Below are positions 355-53,437 of a stretch of DNA of 64,000 bases, piece after piece. Where the stretch lies: assembly GCA_031551355.1 (NCBI GenBank), contig JAVBNT010000038.1:4126-68125 (forward strand), in the 5' to 3' direction. A program made the translations under genes and the position numbers. Source of the stretch: Candidatus Xenobia bacterium (lineage in GTDB: Bacteria > Vulcanimicrobiota > CADAWZ01). The notes below the pieces were generated by a model that was not told the origin of the DNA, did no database searches, and saw only the letters and a list, made by a program, of their open reading frames with translations. Each line of letters begins with the position of its first letter. Positions within the stretch are counted from its first letter, which is position 1.

Positions 355-494
355 CTGTGGCGATCCAGGAAACTAAATATATTTTATATTTCTGATGATT
401 TACCTTAAAAAACAAAATCGCTTCAAACCGGCGGAGATGCGTTGAGCGAGCGGCAACCAGGCCTGACGAGCAGATTTGCCGGTTTCAGGCGATT

Positions 495-1181
495 TTACTT
501 GCTTGGGGTTAGCTTTACGCTCAATGTCTCCAATTTCAACTGCATTCCTTTGGAAAGATAAATATTTTTATACGTTTGGTTCCTGGCATTCATCGACGCT
601 CTTATTTCTTTTTTAGGCTCGTTTGTTGAAAATGTTCCCGAGACTTTTTTACCCATTGCCGTTATGTCATATGTACCCGGGGAAAAATCCTTACCGGAAA
701 GAAAGGTTCCGCTTTGCAGTTTGTATGATTTTTTAATTTTTTGGTTTCTGGGCTGTTGTGGTACCCCGGAGATGTTGGTGCTGCTCAGTTCTACACTGCC
801 GTTAATTACCTTTATATAGCAGTCGTCGGACAGATTTATAAACTCGTGCAGTTTTGTTTCGGGATTGTAGCTGTATGCTTTCATTGAGTTTCCCGATTTA
901 TCGTAAAATGTTACTTCTGCGTTTTGGGAAATAATTTTTACATCGTATTCGCCGGCGGGAAAATCGATTCCGGCGGTATAGAAACCGTTGGCAAGCGTTG
1001 TCTTGTAATGGATGCCGTTCATTTCTCTATCCGGCGGTGACTCGGCAAGGGCGGTTGAACTGTAGAGGAATATCAGGCAAAGAAATATTGCCGCTGTTGT
1101 CGTTACGTGAAGCCATTTTTTTGAAACTTTATATTTAACCATAGATATTGTCCCCCTTTTAAGGCAAGAATTGAAAACCAA
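495..1181 (-). CDS. Secreted hypothetical protein with an internal duplicated module of about 60 aa
   Basis: N-terminal hydrophobic signal-like segment (VTTTAAIFLCLIFLYSSTALA). Two related segments, 'FPAGEYDVKIISQNAEVTF' and 'FSPGTYDITAMGKKVSGTF'. Confidence 0.5.
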   Translation of the reverse strand: MVFNSCLKRGTISMVKYKVSKKWLHVTTTAAIFLCLIFLYSSTALAESPPDREMNGIHYKTTLANGFYTAGIDFPAGEYDVKIISQNAEVTFYDKSGNSMKAYSYNPETKLHEFINLSDDCYIKVINGSVELSSTNISGVPQQPRNQKIKKSYKLQSGTFLSGKDFSPGTYDITAMGKKVSGTFSTNEPKKEIRASMNARNQTYKNIYLSKGMQLKLETLSVKLTPSK

Positions 1182-16440: not shown

Positions 16441-16475
16441 GCGGGTTTTTCTATAAAAATATTTGAGCAAGGGGG

Positions 16476-16502
16476 CTGTCGTGATAACGGCGGCCCCTTT
16501 AA
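16476..16502 (+). repeat. Hairpin repeat (family A') with core CTGTCGTG(A)TAACGGCG
   Basis: 'GGGGGCTGTCGTGATAACGGCGGCCCC' sits just 3' of rny. A near-identical loop occurs at 53381..53404 on the other strand. Confidence 0.5.
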
Positions 16503-16640
16503 CATGGAATAAAAGATAACGATCACCGGGCTGAGCCCGGCAAAACCGGCTTTGGCCGGTTCAAATAGAATTGTAAAAATGGTGAAAAATTAAGAAAAGA
16601 ATAGCAAAAGGCTAGAAAGCAAGCTATTTTTCGCCATTTT

Positions 16641-16684
16641 CTGTCGTACTAAGTGGGCCTTTCTAGCCCCACTTAGTACGACAG
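16641..16684 (+). terminator. Perfect 17-bp-stem hairpin (repeat family A) followed by a T-run. Likely an intrinsic terminator.
   Basis: 'CTGTCGTACTAAGTGGG' + 10-nt loop + 'CCCACTTAGTACGACAG', then 'CCCTTCTTTTATTTTGTTTTTT'. A homologous copy lies at 53204..53245 on the opposite strand. Confidence 0.6.
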
Positions 16685-23928: not shown

Positions 23929-24120
23929 AAACGTTGGTATCCTCTCACGTTGTTATTTAAGTTATCTTCTATAAGATAATATAACATATTTGCTGATATT
24001 TTTTCAACAAGTGTCTTGTTATTATCATTATTTTATTAAAAAATCAGAAGGTTTTTTTCTGCATGGAGTAAAAACTCTAAATATAATAATTTGATAATTA
24101 TATGGAGATTCCTTTAAAAG

Positions 24121-24321
24121 ATGATAGTCAATCTTAACGGCAATAAACATTATTTTGCTGCTGCTCCAACAGTGCAGGAGCTCCTGACTTCGGGTTTGGC
24201 GGAATATTCGGTTATGGCTGTTGTGCTGAATGGAAATGTCGTCAGGGACAGTGACTATCCGCAGATATTCTTGTCGGACGGAGATTCCGTTGAATTGATC
24301 CCGTTTATCTCCGGCGGTTAA
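24121..24321 (+). CDS. ThiS/MoaD-like small protein with a C-terminal Gly-Gly
   Basis: 66 aa, ends '...SVELIPFISGG'. Pattern 'VLNGNVV...DGDSVELI' is typical of the ThiS beta-grasp fold. No thiF/thiG/thiH is nearby. Confidence 0.65.
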   Translation: MIVNLNGNKHYFAAAPTVQELLTSGLAEYSVMAVVLNGNVVRDSDYPQIFLSDGDSVELIPFISGG

Positions 24322-24345
24322 CTTATAATTTAAGGTGCTTTATTT

Positions 24346-25548
24346 ATGAAAAATCTTTTTAAAAATATAAACTTTTTTCTGCTGTGGTCAGGACAGACGG
24401 TTTCTTCCGCCGGGGGATGGATCAATTATGTCGGTTTGAATGTTCTTCTTTATCAGATTTCCGGTTCGGGAAAACTTTTAGGTGCTTTTTTTGTTGCCAG
24501 ACTTGTTCCGGCACTTTTTTTCGGGCCGTTGGGCGGATATCTTGCCGACCGTTATGATAAACGCAAACTGATGATAATGTGTGACACTGTCCGTGCACTG
24601 TCCGTACTTGTTTTTCTTTTTACGGAGAATGTGATTATTTTTTTCACACTGGGATTTTTTCTTTCCGTTTTTGACAAAATATATACATCGGCCAGCGGAG
24701 CCGTTTTGCCGGATGTTGTCGGCCGGCAGGAACTGCTGGCCGCCAATTCACTTAACCGTATTTCCCAGTCGGTCACGACTATTCTCGGCCCTGCGATCGG
24801 CGGCTTTTTAATTGGTATATGGGGATATAAAGTTGTCTTTATTGCCGATAGTATGACTTTCATTTTCTCAGTGATTACCCTGCTGTTTATAAAGTATGTC
24901 AGAGAGGAAAAGGAAGCTTCCAAGACTAAACAGCGTCCGGGATTCATCTCCGAGTTAAAGTATGCGTTTGGATTTTTGCTGACATCTTCTTTTTTACTTT
25001 CCGTTGCCTGTGTAAGGTTTATGGACGCTTTGGGGAGCGGAGCTTTTAACACCGTTTTCCCTGTTTTTTCTTCAAAAATGGTCGTTCCTTACGGCACTTT
25101 CTACGGATGGCTTCTGTCGGCATACGGGGTGGGAACGTTACTCGGATCTTCCCTTACCGGTTTTTTCAGAAAGAAATTCGGTACCGGCCATCTTTATTAT
25201 GTTTCGACGATTGTGATGGCACTTGGGTTGGCAGGGGCATTTCTATTCTCAAATCCGGCTATCAGTTTGGTTTTAATTGCGGTCGGAGGATTTGGGGAAG
25301 GTATTGCCGGTGTTCTTTTCAGCACTGTCATAATGGAGAAAACTCCTAAGGAGATATTAGGTAAAATATTCGGTACCCTGAGTTCTTTCGTATGGATGAT
25401 CTGCGGTCTGGGAATGCTTTTGGCAGGACAATTTTTAGATTACGTTAAATACGATGTAATAACGACATCGGGCGGTATATTCATAGTAGTTTGCACCCTG
25501 TTTTTCTGGATGAAGTACTGTCTTGACAAAAAAGCACAGGAGGATTGA
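24346..25548 (+). CDS. MFS transporter (EntS/MFS_3-like exporter)
   Basis: About 12 TM helices. N-terminal 'LLWSGQTVSSAGGWINYVGL...YLADRYDKRKL' is typical of MFS_3 exporters. Confidence 0.8.
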   Translation: MKNLFKNINFFLLWSGQTVSSAGGWINYVGLNVLLYQISGSGKLLGAFFVARLVPALFFGPLGGYLADRYDKRKLMIMCDTVRALSVLVFLFTENVIIFFTLGFFLSVFDKIYTSASGAVLPDVVGRQELLAANSLNRISQSVTTILGPAIGGFLIGIWGYKVVFIADSMTFIFSVITLLFIKYVREEKEASKTKQRPGFISELKYAFGFLLTSSFLLSVACVRFMDALGSGAFNTVFPVFSSKMVVPYGTFYGWLLSAYGVGTLLGSSLTGFFRKKFGTGHLYYVSTIVMALGLAGAFLFSNPAISLVLIAVGGFGEGIAGVLFSTVIMEKTPKEILGKIFGTLSSFVWMICGLGMLLAGQFLDYVKYDVITTSGGIFIVVCTLFFWMKYCLDKKAQED

Positions 25549-25551
25549 GTT

Positions 25552-26580
25552 ATGACTTTTCCGTTTAAACCCAAGATAGTAGGGTGGGAGCTTACAAGAC
25601 GGTGCAATTACCGGTGTCTTCACTGCGGTACAAGCTGCGGTGCGCCCAGAGATGATGAACTGACGCTTGATCAGGCCTATAAAATGATTGACGATCTTGC
25701 CGAACTTGGATGTGAAATACTCAATCTGTCCGGAGGAGAGCCGTTGATGCACCCTCATTGGGATAAGTTTGCCGTCAGATTGAAGGAAAACAATATTACT
25801 CCGTATATGATTACCAATGCTTACTATATTGAAGACAGTATTGAGCGCATATTAAATTCGCCTTTGAGGCGTATAGGAATAAGCATTGACGGTGATGAAA
25901 AGCTTCATAATCATATAAGGCAAAATCCTGAGGCTTATGCGCGTGTTCTCTCCGCAGCTAAACTTTTGAAAAAACATGGTGTTTCTGTCGGAGCCGTTTC
26001 TCATGCCGCCAAATATAATTTGCATTTGCTTGAGCACATGTATCAGGAATTTTTGAAAATACCGCTTGATTTCTGGCAGATTCAGCTGGCATTTTCCTCC
26101 GGCCGTATGAAGGATTATTCAAATGAACTTTTGGAACCGGAACAGCTTGTAGAAGTGGCAAAATTTATTGAGGAAAAACGCAAAGAAAAGAAAATGATGG
26201 TATGTGTCGGTGACAATCTCGGATATTACTCGTCATATGATATCGTTGATTCGCCCTGGAAGGGCTGCCATGCGGGCCGCTGGGTAGCAGGAATAGAAGC
26301 CGACGGCACGGTTAAAGGATGTCTTTCACTTACTCCTGAGTTTAGAGAGGCTAATCTAAAAGAGCGTTCTTTTAAGGATATCTGGCAGGACAGAGAACTG
26401 TTCAAGTATAACCGCTATTTCAATCCGGAAGATATGTCCGGCAACTGTAAAGGATGTGATAAGGCCCTTGACTGCCGCGGTGGCTGCAGGGTAACTTCTT
26501 TCTGCATGACGGGAAATGTTTTTGACAATCCTTACTGTCTTTACAGGGTTGAGAAGGAAGCTAAGTCCGGTGCAAAATAG
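25552..26580 (+). CDS. Radical SAM enzyme with a C-terminal SPASM domain
   Basis: 'CNYRCLHC' is the CxxxCxxC motif, and 'LSGGEPL' fits. The SPASM cysteines are 'WKGCHAGRW...GCLSL' and 'CKGCDKALDCRGGCRVTSFC'. Confidence 0.85.
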   Translation: MTFPFKPKIVGWELTRRCNYRCLHCGTSCGAPRDDELTLDQAYKMIDDLAELGCEILNLSGGEPLMHPHWDKFAVRLKENNITPYMITNAYYIEDSIERILNSPLRRIGISIDGDEKLHNHIRQNPEAYARVLSAAKLLKKHGVSVGAVSHAAKYNLHLLEHMYQEFLKIPLDFWQIQLAFSSGRMKDYSNELLEPEQLVEVAKFIEEKRKEKKMMVCVGDNLGYYSSYDIVDSPWKGCHAGRWVAGIEADGTVKGCLSLTPEFREANLKERSFKDIWQDRELFKYNRYFNPEDMSGNCKGCDKALDCRGGCRVTSFCMTGNVFDNPYCLYRVEKEAKSGAK

Positions 26581-27847
26581 ATTTGTACTGCCAAAAATAG
26601 AGAACGGTGCATTTTCTCCTTTTGCCGGTGTTGTTTTTTATCCTATTCTTTTGAATTCTTTTTCACTTACAGTGACTGTCAGAGATGGTGTTGCCTGGGA
26701 GGATGATTCCGGTTTTGGATGGGCGCATTTTCTGGAACATGCAAATTTTCAAAAGACGGATCGTTATGCCTCTTTCCTTGAAATTGCCTCATTAGCGGAG
26801 TCGCTTGGCGCCAGGATCAGTGCTTTTACAACCAGAGACTGCGTTACCTATTCCATTCATGCTCCTTCCTGGTCTCTTGAAGAATCGTTTCGGATTATGA
26901 CTTCGCTGATTTCCCATTTAAACTTTGAGGATGATATACTTGACTCTGAAAAAGAAATTATTTTTCAGGAAATGGAGAGAGAAAAGGCTAACTTTAGATC
27001 TTACTATGTTCTGTTTTCGGAAAGTGAACTGCTGTCTCCGTCGATGCTCGGTCGCTATAGTCTTGGTTCAAGAGAAAGTCTTCTGTCTATAAACTCTGCC
27101 AATATCGCAGATTATAAACGCAGAGTTTACAGCCGTGAAAATATCTGCTTGACTCTTTGCGGCGGTTTTGATCTGGAGACGGCTCAGAACCTTACCGGTA
27201 TATTTCTGGAATCGCTTCCGTCTGCTAAAGTGCGCTTGCTGCAGGACTATAATCCTGCAAAGATCTCGGAACGCAGACGATTATACCACTGTCCGTCGGC
27301 GGCGAATCAGGTGCAGATGATCACTTATTTCCGCTTCCCGGCAGTTGCTTATTATGACTGGCTTAAAGCTTCACTTGTAAATACACTTTTGGGCGTAGGT
27401 TTTTCGTCTTTGTTTTATAAAAAATTGCGCCATGAGCAAAAACTTACATATACTACCGCAACTCAGTTGAAATTATACCCTGTGGCCGGAACTTTCCGTC
27501 TTGTGCTTGACTTGGACCCCAAATCAGCATCTTTTGCCGAGAACCTGATCTACAATGTGATCGCGGAACTTGACGATATTTCTGAGAATGATTTTGTTTT
27601 GGCCAAAAATAAATTTTGGGGCGATATCGCATTTAAGCTCTCAGATATGAACTCTTACGGACTTTTTGCCGCCAGAAGACAGTTTATGGGAGAGGAGCGG
27701 CTTCTTTTGTCAAACCTTTATGAGGAATTGAAAAACATGAGCAGGGAAGAACTCTCGGCGTTTGCCGTAAAGAATTTCATCAGAGATAATTCTATCGTTT
27801 GCTTTGCCGGCAGTGATGAGGCTTTAAATACCGTTTCAAAACAGTAG
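26570..27847 (+). CDS. M16 (pitrilysin/insulinase) family zinc peptidase
   Basis: The inverted zinc motif HxxEH ('WAHFLEHANFQ') sits near the N-terminus. GTG 26570 after GAGAAGGAAG overlaps the rSAM stop. The ORF track start at 26516 would overlap by 65 nt. Confidence 0.75.
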   Translation: MQNRFVLPKIENGAFSPFAGVVFYPILLNSFSLTVTVRDGVAWEDDSGFGWAHFLEHANFQKTDRYASFLEIASLAESLGARISAFTTRDCVTYSIHAPSWSLEESFRIMTSLISHLNFEDDILDSEKEIIFQEMEREKANFRSYYVLFSESELLSPSMLGRYSLGSRESLLSINSANIADYKRRVYSRENICLTLCGGFDLETAQNLTGIFLESLPSAKVRLLQDYNPAKISERRRLYHCPSAANQVQMITYFRFPAVAYYDWLKASLVNTLLGVGFSSLFYKKLRHEQKLTYTTATQLKLYPVAGTFRLVLDLDPKSASFAENLIYNVIAELDDISENDFVLAKNKFWGDIAFKLSDMNSYGLFAARRQFMGEERLLLSNLYEELKNMSREELSAFAVKNFIRDNSIVCFAGSDEALNTVSKQ

Positions 27848-27856
27848 GAGGTTGTT

Positions 27857-28237
27857 ATGGATAAGTTTCGCTTAAAATTAGATCATATCGGCTTAATTAC
27901 GTCTGATCTCACTCAGGTGGCCGATTTTTATGAAAATATTTTGGGATTTAAGTCGGAACCGGTTATTGAACCGGAAGATCGTCCTCAGAAAATGCAATAT
28001 TTTCAAAAAGACGGTTATGTGCTGGAGTTCATCCAGCCTTTCAGGGAACTGGCACCGCAGGAAACAGGAATGAAGCATATCGCCTTTACCTGTATTCTTC
28101 TTGATGAGGCTTTTGCGGAAATAAAAGCAAAGGGCTACAAGATGCTGATGGAAGAGCCTCTGCGCTTTGAAGACAGAAGATTTTTCTTTTTTTATGGGGT
28201 GAACAGTACACTAATCGAATTCATGGAATTCGACTAA
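27857..28237 (+). CDS. VOC/glyoxalase-family protein
   Basis: 'LDHIGLITSDLTQVADFYENILGF' is typical of the glyoxalase/bleomycin-resistance fold. Confidence 0.7.
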   Translation: MDKFRLKLDHIGLITSDLTQVADFYENILGFKSEPVIEPEDRPQKMQYFQKDGYVLEFIQPFRELAPQETGMKHIAFTCILLDEAFAEIKAKGYKMLMEEPLRFEDRRFFFFYGVNSTLIEFMEFD

Positions 28238-28360
28238 ATGCGTTCAAATTGACGAATCTCCGTCGCCAGATTGGATTTCGCTCATTCCGCCGTAGTATGT
28301 CTACGGCTCAATCGTCGAAATCCGATCTGTCATAGGCTCTCCGTCAATTTGAACGCATTT
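28238..28360. repeat. MITE-like element (family B), about 123 bp, with perfect 18-bp terminal inverted repeats
   Basis: TIRs 'AATGCGTTCAAATTGACG' and 'CGTCAATTTGAACGCATT'. Internal nested inverted repeats. Homologous copy at 44121..44244. Confidence 0.6.
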
Positions 28361-28475
28361 AGTTTTTAGATGAATTGCGCCCGGCATGCGGGCGAGGTAG
28401 AAAAGACTGCGCTACGCTCGTCAAAATCATTTTTGCCCTAGCCTTCGGCCAGCAATTGACAGCCTAAGCTGTAAT

Positions 28476-28542
28476 TCATTGAAATCAATGAATCCCCGTC
28501 GCCAGATCGGATTTCGCTATGGTTGCCGTATCTCAACCATCG
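28476..28542. repeat. Truncated or diverged copy of the family-B element
   Basis: Shares 'GAATCCCCGTCGCCAGATCGGATTTCGCT' with 28253..28281, then diverges. Confidence 0.4.
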
Positions 28543-28645
28543 TTTTCCACTTTACCGTTACCGCCGGAGCCGCCGCAGTATTGTTCTACGCCTTACTCGT
28601 AAAATCCCTGAAAATAAGTAATTAAATATTTAACACGGAGAATTC

Positions 28646-28837
28646 ATGAAAACAATCAGTAAATCGGTGGCAATGATAATCGTTCTAGCCATGATGATAT
28701 TTTCAGAGAATGCATATGCCAAAGTGTATTGCGAATATTGCAACAAATCTATTTCTTCCAGATCATTAATCAGGAACATAAAGTCTTGCTGTAACGAATG
28801 TCACAAAAAACGTGAACAAAAAAACTGGTTTACATGA
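28646..28837 (+). CDS. Small secreted Cys-containing protein (63 aa)
   Basis: Signal peptide 'VAMIIVLAMMIFSENAYA', then 'CEYCNKS...SCCNECHKK'. Its stop overlaps the next start (ATGA). Confidence 0.4.
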   Translation: MKTISKSVAMIIVLAMMIFSENAYAKVYCEYCNKSISSRSLIRNIKSCCNECHKKREQKNWFT

Positions 28838-29301
28838 AAGATAAAAACACGTCAACGGAAGGGAATGTATCCTTTAGATGTATGTTTTGCGGTAGAGATT
28901 TGGCGGACAGGCCGATAGCTAAGAACGGAAAGCAATACTGCGAAAGCTGTATTACTTTCGTTCCGGATAATCAAACGAAAAACCGAAATCCGTCAGGCAG
29001 TCAGTCAAATCAAAAAACGGCAGCCTGCCAGTGGTGCGGAAAATCAATAAGCGGAAAAATATACAATCGCTACGGCATGCAATACTGTGAACGCTGTCCG
29101 CCGGAAAAAAGTTTGCAATCGATATGCATCATCTGCAGGAAGCCAATAAAAAATGGTGCCTATAGTTCCGGCAATGAATTGTGCTGCTTTAGTTGTTCGG
29201 GCCCTCCTAAACGCTGCAAATCATGTGGAAAGGCAATATGGGGGTCTCAGGCTCAGAGGTATAAATTCTGTAAAAAATGCGGAGAAATAGAGAGCATTTA
29301 G
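28834..29301 (+). CDS. Protein with four tandem zinc-ribbon-like repeats
   Basis: The motif CxxC, 11-13 residues, (Y/F)CxxC repeats four times: 'CMFCG..YCESC', 'CQWCG..YCERC', 'CIICR..CCFSC', 'CKSCG..FCKKC'. Confidence 0.5.
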   Translation: MKDKNTSTEGNVSFRCMFCGRDLADRPIAKNGKQYCESCITFVPDNQTKNRNPSGSQSNQKTAACQWCGKSISGKIYNRYGMQYCERCPPEKSLQSICIICRKPIKNGAYSSGNELCCFSCSGPPKRCKSCGKAIWGSQAQRYKFCKKCGEIESI

Positions 29302-43745: not shown

Positions 43746-44120
43746 ATGTCTATTGATCAAAAGAAAGTTGTTGAGGATTTTTACAAACTGCTTAGAGACA
43801 GGGATTCGGATGCCTTTATTGAGCTTTTTGCGGAGAATGCCTCCGTTTTTTTCCCGGGTGTATCACAGCCTTCGGGGACATATCTGGGAAGGGACAAGAT
43901 AAAAAGATTTTTCAGAAAGATGTTTACCTTTGTTCCCGATATGAGTTTTGAAATGACAAGGGTTATTCATTGTGAAAAGACCGTCTGCGTAGAATGGTCG
44001 CTTTCCGGAAATACAAGAAAAGGCGGTCTTGTTCTTAAAAACGGAGTGTCGATCTTTGAGGTGGACGGATACTCCATAGTGTCGATGAATAGTTATATTG
44101 CTTCCGGACTTTTTGTCTGA
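43746..44120 (+). CDS. SnoaL-like / NTF2-fold small protein
   Basis: 124 aa. 'VVEDFYKLLRDRDSDAFIELFAENASVFFPG' is typical of SnoaL-like domains. Confidence 0.5.
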   Translation: MSIDQKKVVEDFYKLLRDRDSDAFIELFAENASVFFPGVSQPSGTYLGRDKIKRFFRKMFTFVPDMSFEMTRVIHCEKTVCVEWSLSGNTRKGGLVLKNGVSIFEVDGYSIVSMNSYIASGLFV

Positions 44121-44244
44121 AATCAATTGAAATTGGCGAATCTGCGTCGTCAAATCCGATTTCGCTCATTCCGCCGTAGGAAGACTACGGCTCACTCGTC
44201 GAAACCGGACTTGCCTTGGCACCTTCACCAATTTGAATTGATTT
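44121..44244. repeat. MITE-like element (family B), second full copy
   Basis: TIRs 'AATCAATTGAAATTGG' and 'CCAATTTGAATTGATT' (one mismatch). The internal 'TTTCGCTCATTCCGCCGTAG...CTACGGCTCA.TCGTCGAAA' is shared with 28238..28360. Confidence 0.6.
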
Positions 44245-44574
44245 AAATTTCAATTTTGATAAATTCCCCTCCTTTGGAGGGGTGTCGTGGAGCGTCGGGG
44301 TGGTTTCCGCTATAGTTGTGCGGCTACGCCGCATGGACGATTGCAAGCCTGCAGGGCGTGACAATCCAGCCGTTTGTTTTTTGGGGATTGCTTCGTCTAT
44401 GCTCCTCGCAATTACCTAAAGAGAATTGCCTGCGGACTTTTTGTCACTGCCAAGAATACTCTTTCTTAATTAATGCCTATTGAGATAAGACTATGGCTAA
44501 TTTGTCGAAATCAGACCTTGCTTTAACGGTTTGAATTTATTTAAAAACTAATTTAATTTTAAGGAGGAGTATTT

Positions 44575-48212: not shown

Positions 48213-48234
48213 TTAACGATTTTTGGAGTTGGGG

Positions 48235-48284
48235 CGTCTTGTTAGGAACAAACGGGGCGCCCCATTTGCTCCTAACAAGACGCT
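48235..48284. other. Long near-perfect palindrome (19-bp arms) between convergent genes. Candidate bidirectional terminator or REP-like site, with no U-tract.
   Basis: 'GCGTCTTGTTAGGAACAAA' + 'CGGGGCGCCCCAT' + 'TTGCTCCTAACAAGACGC'. Confidence 0.4.
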
Positions 48285-48431: not shown

Positions 48432-49361
48432 TTATGCTTTTGGCGTTTCCGGTTTCGGAGGCTTTGGCGTCGGCTTCGGCGGTTTATGCTGTCCGGCTTC
48501 TTTGGCTTCTTTTACCAGTCTCGACTTTTCAATGACAGCTCCGGCTATTCCACCGGCTACGGCTCCGAGAGCGACTCCTATGAGTCCGCCGATTACAGTA
48601 TAGCCGACTACATTAACTCCGTTATCAAACTCTACCCTGGGTTTGTCATAATATCCCATATTGGTTTTCGTCAATGTCGGACTATATTTATGGTTGTAAC
48701 CTTTGAGCTCTTCGTTTAAGGTTACGTCTCCTTTGGCGTTTAGATCTTTGATGTCGGCTCCGCCGGTAATGGTTTTCAAAGTCGTCGTAACCGGTTTTAC
48801 TTCTTCGGAATATCCGCTTAGTGTATTTTGAACTATCGGCACTGACTCCTGCAGCACTTTCGGTTCGCCATAATTTTTGTAGGTGGCGCTTACTTCTCTC
48901 ATCAGAACTTTTCCGTCCTGCATGACGGGATTGTTTTCGATGACATCCTGCATAAGCTCAGGATGAGGCGATTGATCCGCCAGACCAATGCTGAAATATC
49001 CGGTCGGTATTTTACCAAGATTTTCCGGCTGCAATACCGGTTCCTGCCATGTTATTGTCTGCTCACCGATTTCATTGGAGGTTATTATTTTACGCTCTGC
49101 CAGGCTTTTTCCGTAAAGAGCTCCGCCGACTCCGCCGACGGCACCGCCGATGACAGCACCGAACCCTATGGATTGCTTGCCTCTTTCACTTAAAGGCAAG
49201 AGTGCGGTCATTTTTTTGTAATCACTGTTTGCCGGAGACCTTTCAACTTTATCTTCGGTATTCAACTGAGGGTTTTGCTGTTCTGCCTCAGCTTCTGTTT
49301 TTATGCCGGCCCTTCCGCTTAGAATTGCCGCTGCCGTTAAATTATTTCCTATTGAATTCAT
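48432..49361 (-). CDS. Paralog-family member P5: conserved N-terminal motif, two glycine-zipper TMs, and a Pro/Lys-rich C-terminal tail
   Basis: N-terminus 'MNSIGNNLTAAAILSG'. 'FGAVIGGAVGGVGGALYG' and 'VIGGLIGVALGAVAGGIAGAVI' are the zippers. Central 'WQEPVLQ...NPVMQDGKVLM'. Tail 'KPPKPTPKPPKPETPKA'. RBS GGGAGG sits 14 nt after the P4 stop. Confidence 0.6.
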   Translation of the reverse strand: MNSIGNNLTAAAILSGRAGIKTEAEAEQQNPQLNTEDKVERSPANSDYKKMTALLPLSERGKQSIGFGAVIGGAVGGVGGALYGKSLAERKIITSNEIGEQTITWQEPVLQPENLGKIPTGYFSIGLADQSPHPELMQDVIENNPVMQDGKVLMREVSATYKNYGEPKVLQESVPIVQNTLSGYSEEVKPVTTTLKTITGGADIKDLNAKGDVTLNEELKGYNHKYSPTLTKTNMGYYDKPRVEFDNGVNVVGYTVIGGLIGVALGAVAGGIAGAVIEKSRLVKEAKEAGQHKPPKPTPKPPKPETPKA

Positions 49362-49375
49362 ATCTTGGCCTCCCG

Positions 49376-51190
49376 TTATTGCTGCTGCTGCTGCGCTTCG
49401 TTTTCCTGCGCGCCCTGATTTTGTAATATGGCAAGTACGCCTTCAGCCATTACTGCCGTTAAATTGTCTTTCGCCATCTCAATTTGTTCAGAGATGAATT
49501 TGTCCTTGTTTTCTTTGCCCTTTATGTCTTTAAGCGGCTTTTTCAGCTCATTATAGACGGCACTGCTGATATTTTTTCTGAGTGCGTCAATTTCTTTCTG
49601 TTTTGTATTTAATTCTGCCAGACTCTGCGTCGACAAATCCTGATAAAACGCCGCTTTTTGTTCGTCAGTCATGCCCGCAAGCTGCGGTTCGATTTGTCTG
49701 AAAGCGTTGGCACACATGAAGTTGTTAATATCTTCTGTAGATGGGCCAAGTTGCTGCATTTTCTGGTCAAGATTTTTTGACTGGGTAATATCTTTGGCTA
49801 TTTTGGCAAACTTTACTCCACCGGCAACGGCGGAAACTACCAATGTCGCCGCTGCTCCTATCGGACCGAGAAGAGCTCCGCCGGCAACGGCCAACGGAAT
49901 GGCTCCGAGTGCTCCCGTAAGAGCTCCGACTGTCGTTAAGCCTTTTTCAACGCCAAGTTTATCAAGAACAAAGTCACTTACTTTGCCGGTTAACGGTTTT
50001 ATAAATTTTTGCACATCTGCGGTTAAGTTACGTATCGCCTGCTGGATTTTTGGCCCGGCTAACGCTCCTGCCACTGATGCCCCTGCTCCGATGACTGCTC
50101 CGGTAGCGATGCCTGCCGGTCCGGCAAATGAACCGGACACGGCTCCCAGGGCTGCGCCGGTAGCGGCAGATAAAGCTATTTTTTTAGCTTTGGATTCCAT
50201 ACGGGCACCGACTGCTCCGCCTATTGAAGCGGAAAGGTTTACCGCCGGTCCGCCGATTCCCGTAAAGGCTGTCGTTAGCATACCTGCCGTGAAGCCCCCG
50301 AAAGATCCGTCTCTTGTTTCTGCACGGCTGCTTCCTGATATTGTTGCCGTTGCTCCCGTCAGTCCGCCCATTAGAGCTGTCGAACCAAGTGCCAATCCTG
50401 CCGCGGCCGGGTTGGCAGATGTTGCTATCGCGGCAACGGCTCCGGCAACGGCTCCGCCTCCGGCGGCAAGCGTTGCTGTCAGTAACGACATTTTTGCCGT
50501 TTCTTTTGTTGTCGCGTTTTCAGAAAGTTTATCAGCGAAAGAAGAACCGGTCATGCCCCCGATTGCGCCGACTACTGCGCCTGCGATTGCCGTCACCGGA
50601 CCGCCGATTGCGCCCATGGCCGCACCTGTAGCGGCTCCTGCCGCTATCGGGGCCATTTTTTTGATAATGGATTTTGTTTTTGACAGTTCAACCGGTTTTC
50701 CCGATTCGTCTGTTTTTTGAATTTTTGAGTTCTGCAGTTTTTCTATCAGGGTTCCGGTTGCGCCGGCAACGGCTCCTGCTGCCGCCATTATTCCGATGGA
50801 AGCGAGTCCGGCTGCTCCTCCGGCGAGAGATGACGTGATTGCCGTGCTTGTAAGCAAGGCACCTGCTCCGACGGTAGAACCTGCAAGCAGCGCTTTGGTC
50901 ATGGAGCCTGTTTCTTCTCCAACCGAGACTCCGGCAAATCCAGCTCCGGCACCGGCTACTGCTCCGGGAATTCCTAAAGAGAAAAAGCCTTTTAGCGCCC
51001 CGCCCGTAGCAGCTGATTTTGGTGACGAGTAGGGCATATCGCCTGTTGTCTCAGGCCTGGGTTCAAAGTAATCGGCAATTTTCTGCAACGCGGAAGAAGA
51101 TTCTTTTGTCTCCACATTAACAACAGCCGCTTCCGGTTTAACCGAAGGTTGCTGCAGGGGTATATTGTTTGCATTACTTACAGAATTCAT
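49376..51190 (-). CDS. Paralog-family member P4: 604-aa Gly/Ala-rich multi-glycine-zipper protein with a C-terminal coiled-coil region
   Basis: Shares the N-terminus 'MNSVSNANNI'. More than 300 aa of GxxxG/AxxxA-type hydrophobic repeats. The C-terminus 'KQKEIDALRKN...QQQQQ'. The large plus-strand ORF at 49671..50720 is its mirror image. Confidence 0.6.
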   Translation of the reverse strand: MNSVSNANNIPLQQPSVKPEAAVVNVETKESSSALQKIADYFEPRPETTGDMPYSSPKSAATGGALKGFFSLGIPGAVAGAGAGFAGVSVGEETGSMTKALLAGSTVGAGALLTSTAITSSLAGGAAGLASIGIMAAAGAVAGATGTLIEKLQNSKIQKTDESGKPVELSKTKSIIKKMAPIAAGAATGAAMGAIGGPVTAIAGAVVGAIGGMTGSSFADKLSENATTKETAKMSLLTATLAAGGGAVAGAVAAIATSANPAAAGLALGSTALMGGLTGATATISGSSRAETRDGSFGGFTAGMLTTAFTGIGGPAVNLSASIGGAVGARMESKAKKIALSAATGAALGAVSGSFAGPAGIATGAVIGAGASVAGALAGPKIQQAIRNLTADVQKFIKPLTGKVSDFVLDKLGVEKGLTTVGALTGALGAIPLAVAGGALLGPIGAAATLVVSAVAGGVKFAKIAKDITQSKNLDQKMQQLGPSTEDINNFMCANAFRQIEPQLAGMTDEQKAAFYQDLSTQSLAELNTKQKEIDALRKNISSAVYNELKKPLKDIKGKENKDKFISEQIEMAKDNLTAVMAEGVLAILQNQGAQENEAQQQQQ

Positions 51191-51349
51191 AAATGATATA
51201 ACCTTTTATGCCACAGTACATTTTAATACTTATTGATATTATAACAAAGATCCTGATCGGTAGCCATTTTCTTTGTGTTAAATAATTATGAACACTTCAC
51301 TATCTTTAATTGTAAATCGGCTATTTGACGACATAATTTGTTAAGAATA

Positions 51350-51380
51350 TAAAAAACTGCCTTTTGATGGCAGTTTTTTA
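51350..51380. terminator. Hairpin flanked by A and T runs on both strands. It terminates P3 (minus strand) and may be bidirectional.
   Basis: 'AAAAAACTGCC-TTTTGAT-GGCAGTTTTTTA'. Confidence 0.5.
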
Positions 51381-51403
51381 TATAAGTCAATTATTTGTTT
51401 TTA

Positions 51404-52234
51404 TCAGCTGGTTGCTTTGGCAATTGCCGCCCCGGCAATACCGCCCGCCAAAGCGCCGATGCCTGCTCCGGCAAGAACACCGAGAGCTGTGTTGAGTGTG
51501 ATATTTACACCGGTTTCAAACCTTACTTTAGGAGTTTGAAATTCTCCCACTTTAATTCTCTCTATGTCCGGATAAAAGTCATGATCGTAACCTACAACTC
51601 TTTCATGGGTAGAATAAACGTCATTTCCGTCTTCATCCTTGCCTTCGTATACCTGATATGTCTCAATATCCTCACGTATGGACTCGCTGTATCCGTTCAG
51701 TTTTTTCTGCTCAATGTTATTTGTATTCCAGCTGACTTCCGGTGTTCCGTAGTTGGCATATTCCTTGGAGACATTCTGCATCACCGGTTTGCCGTTCTGC
51801 ATTACCGGGTTGTCTCTGGTTACATCCGTTGTACCATGACCGTAGCTTATCCAGTTGGAATATCTTGACGAGCTGTAGAAATCCGAGGGAATTTCTCCGA
51901 GAACTTCTTTTTGCATGACCGGTTCCTGCCAGTCAAGCGTTATTGTGTTAAAGTCGTTTGTGGCCTTAATGGTGTTCATCGACATATTATAAGCTACGAT
52001 GCCGCCGGCAATACCTCCGGCTACTCCGCCGATGGCAGCGCCTTTTATCGCCCAGTCTTTTGCTTTTTCATCAAGTTTGAGAAAGTCGGGTTTTTTAAAG
52101 TCTTTGGCAGGTGAACTTTTCTCAAATGCATCGGCTGTTTCGGCAGACAATTCTGACGATGTTGCTTTGATATTTTGTGCCTGAGTGTTTTTTAATATTG
52201 CACTGGCTGTGATATTTGAAGAGATACCGTTCAT
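51404..52234 (-). CDS. Paralog-family member P3
   Basis: 'MNGISSNITASAILKN', first zipper 'GAAIGGVAGGIAGGIVAYNMS', central 'WQEPVMQ...NPVMQNGKPVMQNVS...YGTPEVSW', C-terminal zipper 'LGVLAGAGIGALAGGIAGAAIAKA'. RBS GGAGGT sits 36 nt after the P2 stop. Confidence 0.6.
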   Translation of the reverse strand: MNGISSNITASAILKNTQAQNIKATSSELSAETADAFEKSSPAKDFKKPDFLKLDEKAKDWAIKGAAIGGVAGGIAGGIVAYNMSMNTIKATNDFNTITLDWQEPVMQKEVLGEIPSDFYSSSRYSNWISYGHGTTDVTRDNPVMQNGKPVMQNVSKEYANYGTPEVSWNTNNIEQKKLNGYSESIREDIETYQVYEGKDEDGNDVYSTHERVVGYDHDFYPDIERIKVGEFQTPKVRFETGVNITLNTALGVLAGAGIGALAGGIAGAAIAKATS

Positions 52235-52270
52235 GAGTGCTGACCTCCGTTTTCTATTTGAGCGGTTATT

Positions 52271-53074
52271 TTAATTGTTTATGGCTTTTGCTATTGCCGC
52301 TCCGGCAATGCCGCCGGCCAAAGCGCCGATTCCTGCTCCGGCCAAAACTCCGAGAGCAGTATTGAGCGTTACGTTTACAGCCGGTTTGAAACTGACGTTG
52401 GGAACCTGATAGCTTCCTATTTTAGTCGATTCTATATTGGGCTGGAATTTGTGTTCAAATCCCTTTATTCTTTCATAAGTGCTGCCGTTTTTTTGATACT
52501 GCTCGACATCGGGACTTGTTGAGTGGCTGTATCCGCTCAGTTTTTCCTGGGAAATATCTTTTGTTTCCCATTTTACTACCGGCGTTCCATAGTCGGAATA
52601 TGTGGCAGAGATATTTTTCATCAAAGGAGCACCGTTTTCCTGGACGGGATTATTTCCGTAAATATCTGTTGTTCCCGCGCCTGATTTTGCCCAGTCGGCT
52701 TTGCTGGAGGAATTGTAGAAATCTGCCGGTATATTGCCTAATTTTTCATTTTGCATCTCCGGTTGCTGCCAGTCTACGCTGACGGTGTTGAATTCATTTT
52801 TTTCCTTAAGTGCTGCAGATGACAGGTTATGGGCGACAATGCCGCCGGCAATACCGCCGGCGACTCCGCCGATGGAAGCCCCTATTGCGGCACCTTTTTT
52901 TGTGCTTTCGCTCATTTTAAGAAAGTCCGACTTTTTTAACTCTGAAGAGTCGGAGGCTTTTTCTACGGTATCTTTTGTATTTATAGCCGCACAGTCGTTT
53001 TTTTCTGCTGTTTTTTTCGTTTCGGCACTTTTTAATATTGAGCTTGCGGTAATTCCTGAAGATATGCTATTCAT
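52271..53074 (-). CDS. Paralog-family member P2
   Basis: 'MNSISSGITASSILKS'. Same two-zipper architecture. The 5' 45 nt are nearly identical to P1 at the DNA level. Confidence 0.6.
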   Translation of the reverse strand: MNSISSGITASSILKSAETKKTAEKNDCAAINTKDTVEKASDSSELKKSDFLKMSESTKKGAAIGASIGGVAGGIAGGIVAHNLSSAALKEKNEFNTVSVDWQQPEMQNEKLGNIPADFYNSSSKADWAKSGAGTTDIYGNNPVQENGAPLMKNISATYSDYGTPVVKWETKDISQEKLSGYSHSTSPDVEQYQKNGSTYERIKGFEHKFQPNIESTKIGSYQVPNVSFKPAVNVTLNTALGVLAGAGIGALAGGIAGAAIAKAINN

Positions 53075-53203
53075 TTTTAATCTCCTTGGTTTTAAGGCAA
53101 TAAACTACCATTTTAAATAATTTTTAATATATTATACCATACTGTTTTTTTACAGGTAAGTCTTTTTGGGTTAAAAAAGTATTAACAGATATACAAAAAG
53201 AGG

Positions 53204-53245
53204 CTGTCGCGCTAAATGGGTAGAAAGACCCGCTTAGCACGACAG
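53204..53245 (-). repeat. Hairpin repeat family A copy. Read on the minus strand it is followed by a U-run, so it is a likely terminator of P1.
   Basis: The minus-strand sequence is 'CTGTCGTGCTAAGCGGGTCTTTCTACCCATTTAGCGCGACAG' then 'CCTCTTTTTGTAT'. About 85% identical to 16641..16684. Confidence 0.5.
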
Positions 53246-53380
53246 AAAAAGATTGAAAATGCTTTGCTCCGTCATTTTTTGCTGTTATTTATCTTCATTT
53301 CTCATCCTTTCTAATGGTATTTGTCCGGCACATGCCGGGATTAGGCGCCTGCGGGCGCGAAGCTTTTATCATGTAAAAAG

Positions 53381-53404
53381 GGCCGCCGTTAGCACGACAG
53401 CCCT
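53381..53404 (-). repeat. Hairpin repeat family A' copy inside a larger 14-bp-stem palindrome
   Basis: The minus-strand sequence 'GGGCTGTCGTGCTAACGGCGGCCC' matches 16478..16501 except for one or two nt. It is flanked by 'CATGTAAAAAGGGC' and 'GCCCTCTTTACATG'. Confidence 0.4.
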
Positions 53405-53437
53405 CTTTACATGATAAATAATATGTGTCTGTTATTT

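Follow-up and report, generated by a model that had tools for sequence, protein, structure and literature searches.

Several families of imperfect palindrome, 100-170 bp in length, lie between the genes of enterobacteria and Neisseria, namely ERIC/IRU, YPAL and Correia/NEMIS. They form an RNA hairpin when co-transcribed with their neighbours, with reported effects on mRNA stability and termination, and they are marked by well-conserved termini and by TA target duplications. In the RNIE terminator study, the TRIT hairpins of Mycobacterium tuberculosis, which are homologous to one another, present in many copies and placed at gene 3' ends, were reportedly read as mobile or duplicated intrinsic terminators. 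To our knowledge, no palindromic repeat family has been described for class Xenobia of the Eremiobacterota / Vulcanimicrobiota. REP sequences, by way of comparison, are built from palindromic units of 20-40 bp, each ending on one side in an unpaired tag, GTAG or CGTC; they lie downstream of genes, and their termini can supply stop codons to the flanking ORFs (PMC3733652).

Here we describe 'family B', a real dispersed, multi-copy and hairpin-forming repeat, in the form of an imperfect palindrome of 85-145 bp, from a 64-kb stretch of DNA that was analysed as a whole (hereafter 'the window') and from two further species. The family is mobile-like and sits at gene 3' ends, yet is no textbook MITE; it is an addition to the broad known class of bacterial palindromic extragenic repeats, but is neither a classical MITE, nor a REP, nor an attC site. 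Its hosts are uncultured bacteria of the gut or rumen, a small clade of relatives of Candidatus Xenobia (Eremiobacterota / Vulcanimicrobiota), in which it most likely represents a spreading set of candidate transcription-terminator or mRNA 3'-end modules. The lineage thereby gains a well-defined palindromic repeat family.

Copies in the window and in related genomes

The window is a piece of ordinary chromosome (MutS2, fatty-acid synthesis genes, RNase Y, PASTA kinase) and contains three intact copies (c1, c2 and c5) along with two decayed ones (c3 and c4); no transposase or integrase gene was found in its 64 kb. From c1, c2 and a metagenome copy we built a covariance model, which recovered c5 within the window and c6 in a third species. 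The copies and the features that adjoin them are as follows, with c6 and the L032 copy numbered on their own contigs.

402-412, minus strand: T-rich tail of c5, TTTTTTTAAGG (GTTTTTTAAGG when read from 413)
413-497, minus strand: c5, 85 nt, intact arms with an internal deletion (covariance model, 41 bits, E 6e-8)
28234-28362, plus strand: c1, intact long hairpin (repeat and inverted-repeat search, fold, covariance model at 144 bits)
28235-28237, plus strand: TAA stop of the VOC/glyoxalase gene (27857-28237; Pfam Glyoxalase), inside the left arm of c1
28363-28367, plus strand: T-run TTTTT, directly 3' of the c1 hairpin
28473-28607, plus strand: c3, decayed; left arm and left middle stem at 28473-28518, centre at 28570-28607
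44118-44120, plus strand: TGA stop of the SnoaL-like gene (43746-44120), one base of which is shared with the left end of c2
44120-44244, plus strand: c2, intact long hairpin (repeat search, fold, covariance model at 142 bits)
44487-44548, plus strand: c4, decayed, right half only, oriented as c2 (local alignment to 44181-44244)
L034 4283-4426: c6, copy in a third species (66 bits to the covariance model)
L032 2710-2837: copy in a second species (arm-pattern scan of the JGI metagenomes)

An earlier note on this DNA, in which c4 and c5 were missed, had described c1 as a 123-bp element with exactly complementary 18-bp ends that begins one nucleotide past the VOC stop. The arms are as claimed, with the 18-nt AATGCGTTCAAATTGACG at 28237-28254 and its exact reverse complement at 28342-28359, but the coordinates were one base off and the perfect inverted repeat is in fact 21 bp long (28234-28254 / 28342-28362). 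As this longer repeat contains the VOC TAA, c1 overlaps the stop codon rather than following it by one nucleotide. A second full copy had been placed after the SnoaL-like stop, at 44121 to 44244, with ends said to differ at one position; the copy is there, but the element itself runs from 44121 to 44243, its inverted repeat reaches 44120-44244 and so takes the A of the TGA into the pairing, and the 18-nt arms (within 44120-44138 / 44226-44244) differ twice, by a G·G and a C·A mismatch. Together, c1 and c2 form a direct repeat of 131 nt at 76% identity (family D9 of the repeat search), with 87% identity across 75 nt of their cores and with a 22-nt core sequence that occurs twice against an expectation of zero; their resemblance is not due to chance. 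We had considered a larger duplicated unit, extending 110-190 nt past c1 and c2, and rejected it, as those segments are no more alike than shuffled sequence. At c1 and c2, short-read contigs from the source organism stop within the element or just past it, as is expected of a repeat; repeats of this kind break metagenome assemblies of the lineage.

The truncated copy that had been reported about 115 bp downstream of c1 does exist, as c3, albeit in a decayed rather than a cleanly truncated form: its first part (28473-28518) is 83% identical to the left arm of c1 (repeat family D12, which comprises three left arms), an unrelated insert of about 50 nt precedes the centre of the element, and the right arm is absent. 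Its predicted fold is no better than background (z -0.9). Both c3 and c4 lie 110-240 nt downstream of an intact copy, with orientation unchanged. On the opposite strand, c5 begins with TAAAAT, which contains the TAA stop (497-495) of an ORF at 495-1181 (minus strand); it has kept both arms and lost most of its interior, and what remains has CGCTCGCTCAACG in common with the L032 copy from another species.

Nearest to the window are rumen MAGs that bear the label Candidatus Xenobia or Eremiobacterota and whose XDH large subunit is 73-76% identical to that of the window. Five intact copies from three species (c1, c2, c5, L032 and c6) were examined in what follows. The second species holds at least two loci, given that contig L010, from the same species as L032, carries the same 57 nt beside a different gene and ends within the element. 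This species is represented in JGI 3300027904 and ERZ27257344/5, and that of L034 in ERZ27245258/9; reads for the source MAG of the window are in SRR23967707 and SRR23967709. With homologues in two other species, in addition to the copies of the window, the earlier description of a dispersed, multi-copy element holds good. More distant relatives yielded no copy in about 190 kb (L005-L008, L035 and L038-L048), and an exact-pattern scan for the core across GTDB representative genomes gave no match. In the JGI metagenomes a pattern for the left part matched nothing, and the arm pattern matched seven times, of which only L032 is real, the others being judged from their printed context to be matches in coding sequence. 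The same arm pattern matched 15 IMG/VR viral contigs, none with a partner arm, which we put down to chance. Plasmid and phage collections held no match to family B, and a comparison of the translated element with a protein database, in which spurious ORFs were sought, gave no candidates. No gene for a RAYT, a TnpA or any other transposase was seen in the window or in the fetched loci.

Several other features of the window deserve mention in their own right. Some 200 nt downstream of c5 lies a terminator-like hairpin (153-215; AAAAAATTCGGC...GCCGAATTTTTT) that carries the ATCTCC loop motif and matches the family B model weakly (18 bits, E 0.04); it is possibly a miniature or decayed relative of the family. 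Short hairpins of the form (G)ATTGC...GCAAT(T/G)AC occur 10-200 nt past each family B locus of the window (28372-28465, 44339-44370, 44383-44416 and, on the minus strand, 318-367) and may constitute a third small repeat family. An unrelated repeat family, 'A', forms hairpin clusters of about 200 bp at 16469-16680 and 53218-53407, one on each strand, within long intergenic regions; its inverted repeats, I1 and I4, are 38 nt at 89% and 73 nt at 71% complementarity. A row of genes just upstream of the VOC gene (24100-27850), made up of a small ThiS-like gene and of genes for an MFS transporter, a radical SAM/SPASM enzyme and an M16 peptidase, resembles a RiPP-type cluster for peptide maturation. 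Immediately past the c1/c3 region (28646-29301) are two small Cys-rich ORFs, of 63 and 155 amino acids, with many CxxC pairs and no Pfam match. Lastly, five paralogous Gly/Ala-repeat genes with weak Gly-zipper Pfam matches run along the minus strand at 48432-54280; these Gly/Ala-rich paralogues are the source of most of the direct-repeat families in the window.

Shared anatomy and covariation of the hairpin

All five intact copies fold far below shuffled sequence, with sense-strand energies between -30 and -64 kcal/mol. The interior had been said to fold into nested hairpins; c1 (-63.8 kcal/mol, z -11.2) and c2 (-49.2 kcal/mol, z -6.8) each form a long interrupted hairpin. Inside its arms, c1 has a 5x5 internal loop (AATCT / CTCTC), followed by a 14-bp middle stem and a 7-bp apical stem (GCCGTAG/CTACGGC). 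Across the five copies the left side can be written as T(A/G)AAAT, 3-4 free nucleotides, T-G-AAA, five nearly free nucleotides and (G/A)ATCT; the right side reads ATCTC(C), five nucleotides, TTTGA, 3-4 nucleotides and ATTT(A/T), and then passes into a T-rich tail. The outer stem, of 20 bp, is free in sequence but keeps its pairing. Two parts of the hairpin are fixed, both of them asymmetric. The first is a box within this stem, in which the left TGAAA faces the right TTTGA in four of five copies and so produces a G·G mismatch (c1, with TCAAA, pairs here); the second is an asymmetric internal loop, (G/A)ATCT against ATCTC, which recurs as a 5x5 loop, both sides of which are rich in pyrimidines on the sense strand. 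The inner hairpin is variable, with one type in c1 and c2, another in L032, another again in c6, and a deletion in c5.

When copies are compared with one another, their arms (c1, c2, c5, L032 and c6) are only about 50-70% identical, as exemplified by c1 and c5 at 10/19 (a count taken from the arm table). Within copies, by contrast, 90% of the cells in a table of 23 outer-region pairs by five copies are paired, and 12 of the 23 pairs have changed on both sides; these values were never reached in 500 shuffles, and registers slid out of place pair at only 26-46%. Such pairing could be kept by a function of the RNA, or else by a process at the level of DNA, such as repair or conversion from arm to arm. 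The fixed mismatch and the fixed loop, for their part, suggest a protein that recognises them. With a stem that drifts while it goes on pairing, and with one mismatch and one loop that stay fixed, family B makes a good test case for telling apart RNA function, arm-to-arm DNA repair and recognition by an enzyme.

The strand on which the hairpin acts is not marked by its wobble pairs: mismatches of wobble type number 16 of the sense type and 16 of the antisense type, such that G·U does not outnumber A·C on the sense strand. Fold energies are somewhat more favourable for the antisense strand in c1, c2, c5 and L032, and more favourable for the sense strand in c6. The idea that the antisense strand is the one that folds was dropped because c6 behaves in the opposite manner and because the wobble counts are equal. 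We likewise discarded the notion that the element brings built-in stops in all three frames, as its left arm closes only one or two of them and AT-rich sequence suffices to do this.

Stop-codon contact and turnover at gene ends

In all five intact copies the left end meets a same-strand stop codon, lying anywhere from 12 nt inside the gene to 0 nt after it. The genes concerned encode the VOC protein, the SnoaL-like protein, the product of ORF 495-1181, a EutN-like protein (L032) and the XDH large subunit (L034). In c1, c2 and c5 the element's own T(A/G)A serves as the stop codon; the EutN-like gene of L032 ends at the TGA of the TGAAA box; and the left end of c6 is the nucleotide right after a TAG stop. 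Ordinary terminators, of which a few were inspected in the relatives and in the window, begin some 10-60 nt past the stop. The right end bears no relation to gene ends, being 23 nt (L010) or about 47 nt (L032) from convergent stops and elsewhere hundreds of nucleotides from the next start. The position of family B marks true gene ends and is thus an aid to annotation.

Past the right arm, each of the five intact copies has a T-rich tail, only weakly so in c2, and the tail is itself conserved from copy to copy: GTTTTTTAAGG follows both c5 and c6, which come from different species, and the tails of L010 and L032 are also alike, as read from their printed flanks.

Comparison of orthologous sites shows that the element comes and goes. 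The spacer between the SnoaL-like gene and the gene for an FAD subunit measures 455 bp in the window, where it holds c2 and c4, against 35 bp in L005, 88 bp in L035, where a plain terminator stands, and 420 bp in L034, which has no family B there. At the 3' end of the XDH gene, L034 alone carries family B; its place is taken by a plain terminator in L035 and by an unrelated perfect palindrome in the window. This palindrome (48234-48283; 25+25 nt, 92% complementary, with no spacer) starts 22 nt past the XDH stop of the window. As the type of hairpin at this gene end differs between the window, L034 and L035, hairpins here turn over between species. From filled and empty orthologous sites taken together, it follows that family B is gained and lost independently of the neighbouring gene. 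In the second species an element adjoins a SnoaL homologue in the reversed orientation (L010, minus strand).

We considered whether the SnoaL-like protein had been cut short by insertion of the element, from an ancestral form ending in ...GLFVTAKNTLS*, and rejected this, as an element-free homologue, P0002, also ends in ASGLFV*; with that ending unchanged in the absence of the element, c2 sits exactly at the native end of the gene. The SnoaL-like genes of the window (43746-44120) and of L005 (8756-9130) are 30% identical, where their syntenic neighbours are 49-76% identical, and on this comparison the gene may be a replacement and not an inherited copy. In the window, the final 21 nt of the gene (44097-44117) are repeated, at 19/21, 328 nt downstream at 44425-44445, between c2 and c4; this duplicate could be the scar of a recombination event or of stacked insertions.

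Candidate functions and comparison with known systems

Synthesising these findings, we propose a putative intrinsic terminator or 3'-end stabiliser as the best functional reading of family B, one that we hold to be about evenly balanced. What recommends it is that three features come together: the stop codon at the foot, the long hairpin whose foot is A-rich, and the conserved tail rich in U. During transcription of the upstream gene, the RNA would fold into the long hairpin, the A-rich foot of which would pair with the start of the U-tract, leaving a further U-run to follow; the module would then terminate transcription intrinsically, block 3'-exonucleases, or do both, exactly at the point where the ribosome stops. 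A stable hairpin followed by a U-rich tract, on the same strand and past an ORF, is what one looks for in an intrinsic terminator, and this is found at all five copies (with a weak tract in c2). A functional 3'-UTR element, which the earlier note had offered as one possibility, or a terminator element fits the anatomy, given contact with the stop codon at five of five copies and a tail that is part of the repeat. We also suggest that copies at stop codons would stay paired through selection and that copies shifted downstream, such as c3 and c4, would decay, while new copies would arise at gene ends without a target duplication and without the need for a conserved terminal sequence.

That said, several points speak against the terminator reading, which draws on five intact copies from three species: the stem beside the U-tract is rich in A and U, unlike that of textbook terminators; the tail of c2 is weak; the conserved G·G mismatch and loop sequences are left over by a plain terminator; selection at the level of RNA might have given an excess of G·U pairs, where the sense strand is neutral; and repair or conversion between the arms, as DNA, could maintain the pairing with no role for the RNA. 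A simple terminator scan made no call at the elements, although a tool limited to loops of 3-8 nt and to a count of at most 20 pairs may be poorly suited to a hairpin of this length with its interruptions.

Among the rival explanations, we rate as unlikely, but ahead of the others, a selfish hairpin transposon that moves as single-stranded DNA (REPIN/RAYT-like, or derived from IS200/IS605), in which a Y1/HUH enzyme elsewhere would recognise the mismatch and the loop, and any effect on the mRNA would be incidental. Enzymes of this type orient themselves by just such mismatches and asymmetric loops, and the hint that these fixed features give of a recognising protein keeps the idea alive. The structure is conserved with neither a target-site duplication nor a conserved terminal sequence, wobble pairs without strand bias fit a structure formed by DNA, and gain and loss at orthologous sites is what a transposon would produce; REP dimers, moreover, form larger hairpins, lie downstream of ORFs and supply stop codons (PMC3733652). 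Set against this, the arms taken singly are not palindromes throughout the family (those of c2, c5 and c6 are not), a conserved unpaired GTAG/CGTC end tag is missing, the window and fetched loci show neither a RAYT nor a TnpA gene, and a tail within the unit together with left ends on stops in all five copies is not explained by a hairpin transposon alone.

A classical MITE, that is, a deletion derivative of an insertion sequence moved by a DDE transposase acting on its terminal inverted repeats, was the main idea of the earlier note, and is in our judgement distinctly improbable. Small size, terminal inverted repeats, multiple copies and presence or absence at orthologous loci would all agree with it, as would c5, an internally deleted derivative with both its ends. 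Target-site duplications, however, are lacking: in the flanks of c1, c2, c5, L032 and c6 there is no direct repeat, even of 2 nt, with consistent boundaries, and this, along with the want of a terminal sequence common to all copies, makes the classical MITE unlikely. Moreover, arms that differ by some 30-50% between copies, while 90% of positions pair within them, are so divergent that a single transposase could not recognise them, and arms that decayed independently would lose their pairing. The absence of a transposase gene from the 64 kb, and of any similarity to plasmid or phage records, points in the same direction.

The second alternative in that note was a structured small RNA. A stand-alone small RNA or cis-regulatory RNA with a promoter of its own, possibly on the strand opposite to the upstream gene, would account for the strong covariation of the stem, for the conserved unpaired nucleotides of the internal loop and for the somewhat better antisense folds of four copies; we think it most improbable. 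At threshold, Rfam recognises only two tRNAs in the window, and permissive searches of c1, c2 and c6 gave matches at chance level; there is no promoter-like site at the elements; and the better sense-strand fold of c6 and the even wobble counts do not favour the opposite strand. An interior that can be replaced or deleted (c5, c6), with arms, stop contact and T-tail kept, is better fitted by a 3'-end module than by an RNA that depends on one particular fold.

Least probable of all is an attC-like folded site for a tyrosine recombinase, as at the ends of integron cassettes: copies directly after small accessory-type genes (VOC, SnoaL), sequence that varies while structure is conserved, arms of 19-20 bp with a mid-arm mismatch, a centre of variable length and a local resemblance of AATTCGTTCAA..GACG in L032/L010 to GTCTAACAATTCGTTCAAGCCGACG of the class 1 integron attC (PMC2117344) are outweighed by the absence of R boxes (the ends being AAAT/ATTT, not RYYYAAC/GTTRRRY), by the lack of a cassette array or an integrase, with copies 16-28 kb apart (at 0.4, 28.2 and 44.1 kb) among housekeeping genes, and by XDH subunit, EutN-like and syntenic SnoaL genes that stay put in element-free relatives, such that the hairpin moves without the gene.

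Returning to the preferred reading of a terminator or 3'-end module, we speculate on how it might spread. Family B could be a terminator cassette that propagates itself and has stop codons as its specific target, in which new copies would be placed at ORF ends with their own T(A/G)A or TGA able to serve as the stop, older copies would be pushed downstream, where they decay (the stacks c1 to c3 and c2 to c4), and the folded DNA would be recognised, by its G·G mismatch and its ATCT loops, by a protein dedicated to this; as it stands we look on this as distinctly improbable. If insertion were indeed targeted to stop codons, family B would become considerably more interesting, and delivery of this sort would be a mode of targeting not known to have been described for bacterial mobile DNA.

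How, then, does family B stand beside the systems already described? It is like ERIC/IRU, YPAL and Correia/NEMIS in size, in being palindromic across the whole element and in its intergenic location; it differs from them in having no conserved termini or TA duplications, in a left end locked to stops in one orientation, and in belonging to a different phylum. We see no similarity of sequence to these families, on the basis of the plasmid, phage and Rfam searches, which returned no match. Like TRIT, family B consists of homologous hairpins at the 3' ends of genes; it is much longer, with an interrupted stem, conserved asymmetric loops and overlap with the stop codon.

The attC sites of integrons share with family B an imperfect inverted repeat at or in the preceding stop codon, structure better conserved than sequence, arms of about 20 bp with a mismatch, and a variable centre (PMC2117344). 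Family B, however, has the ends T(A/G)AAAT ... ATTT(A/T) and GTTCAAA/TTTGAAC boxes without the flanking AAC/GTT triplets; it forms no array, has no integrase, and comes and goes independently of the gene.

To the REP/BIME/REPIN group the likeness is broader, in that both are extragenic, downstream of ORFs and often clustered, with termini that supply stops and with no target duplication; inverted pairs of REPs fold into larger hairpins, for which roles in termination and mRNA stabilisation have been proposed (PMC3733652). A place past ORFs, with termini able to supply stops, is indeed found at all five intact copies of family B. Yet each of these is one hairpin of 85-145 nt rather than a dimer of 20-40-bp palindromes, there is no end tag (c1, c2 and L032 have GTAG in the apical stem and nowhere else, and c5 lacks it), no RAYT accompanies it in the window or the fetched loci, and the T-tail belongs to the unit itself.
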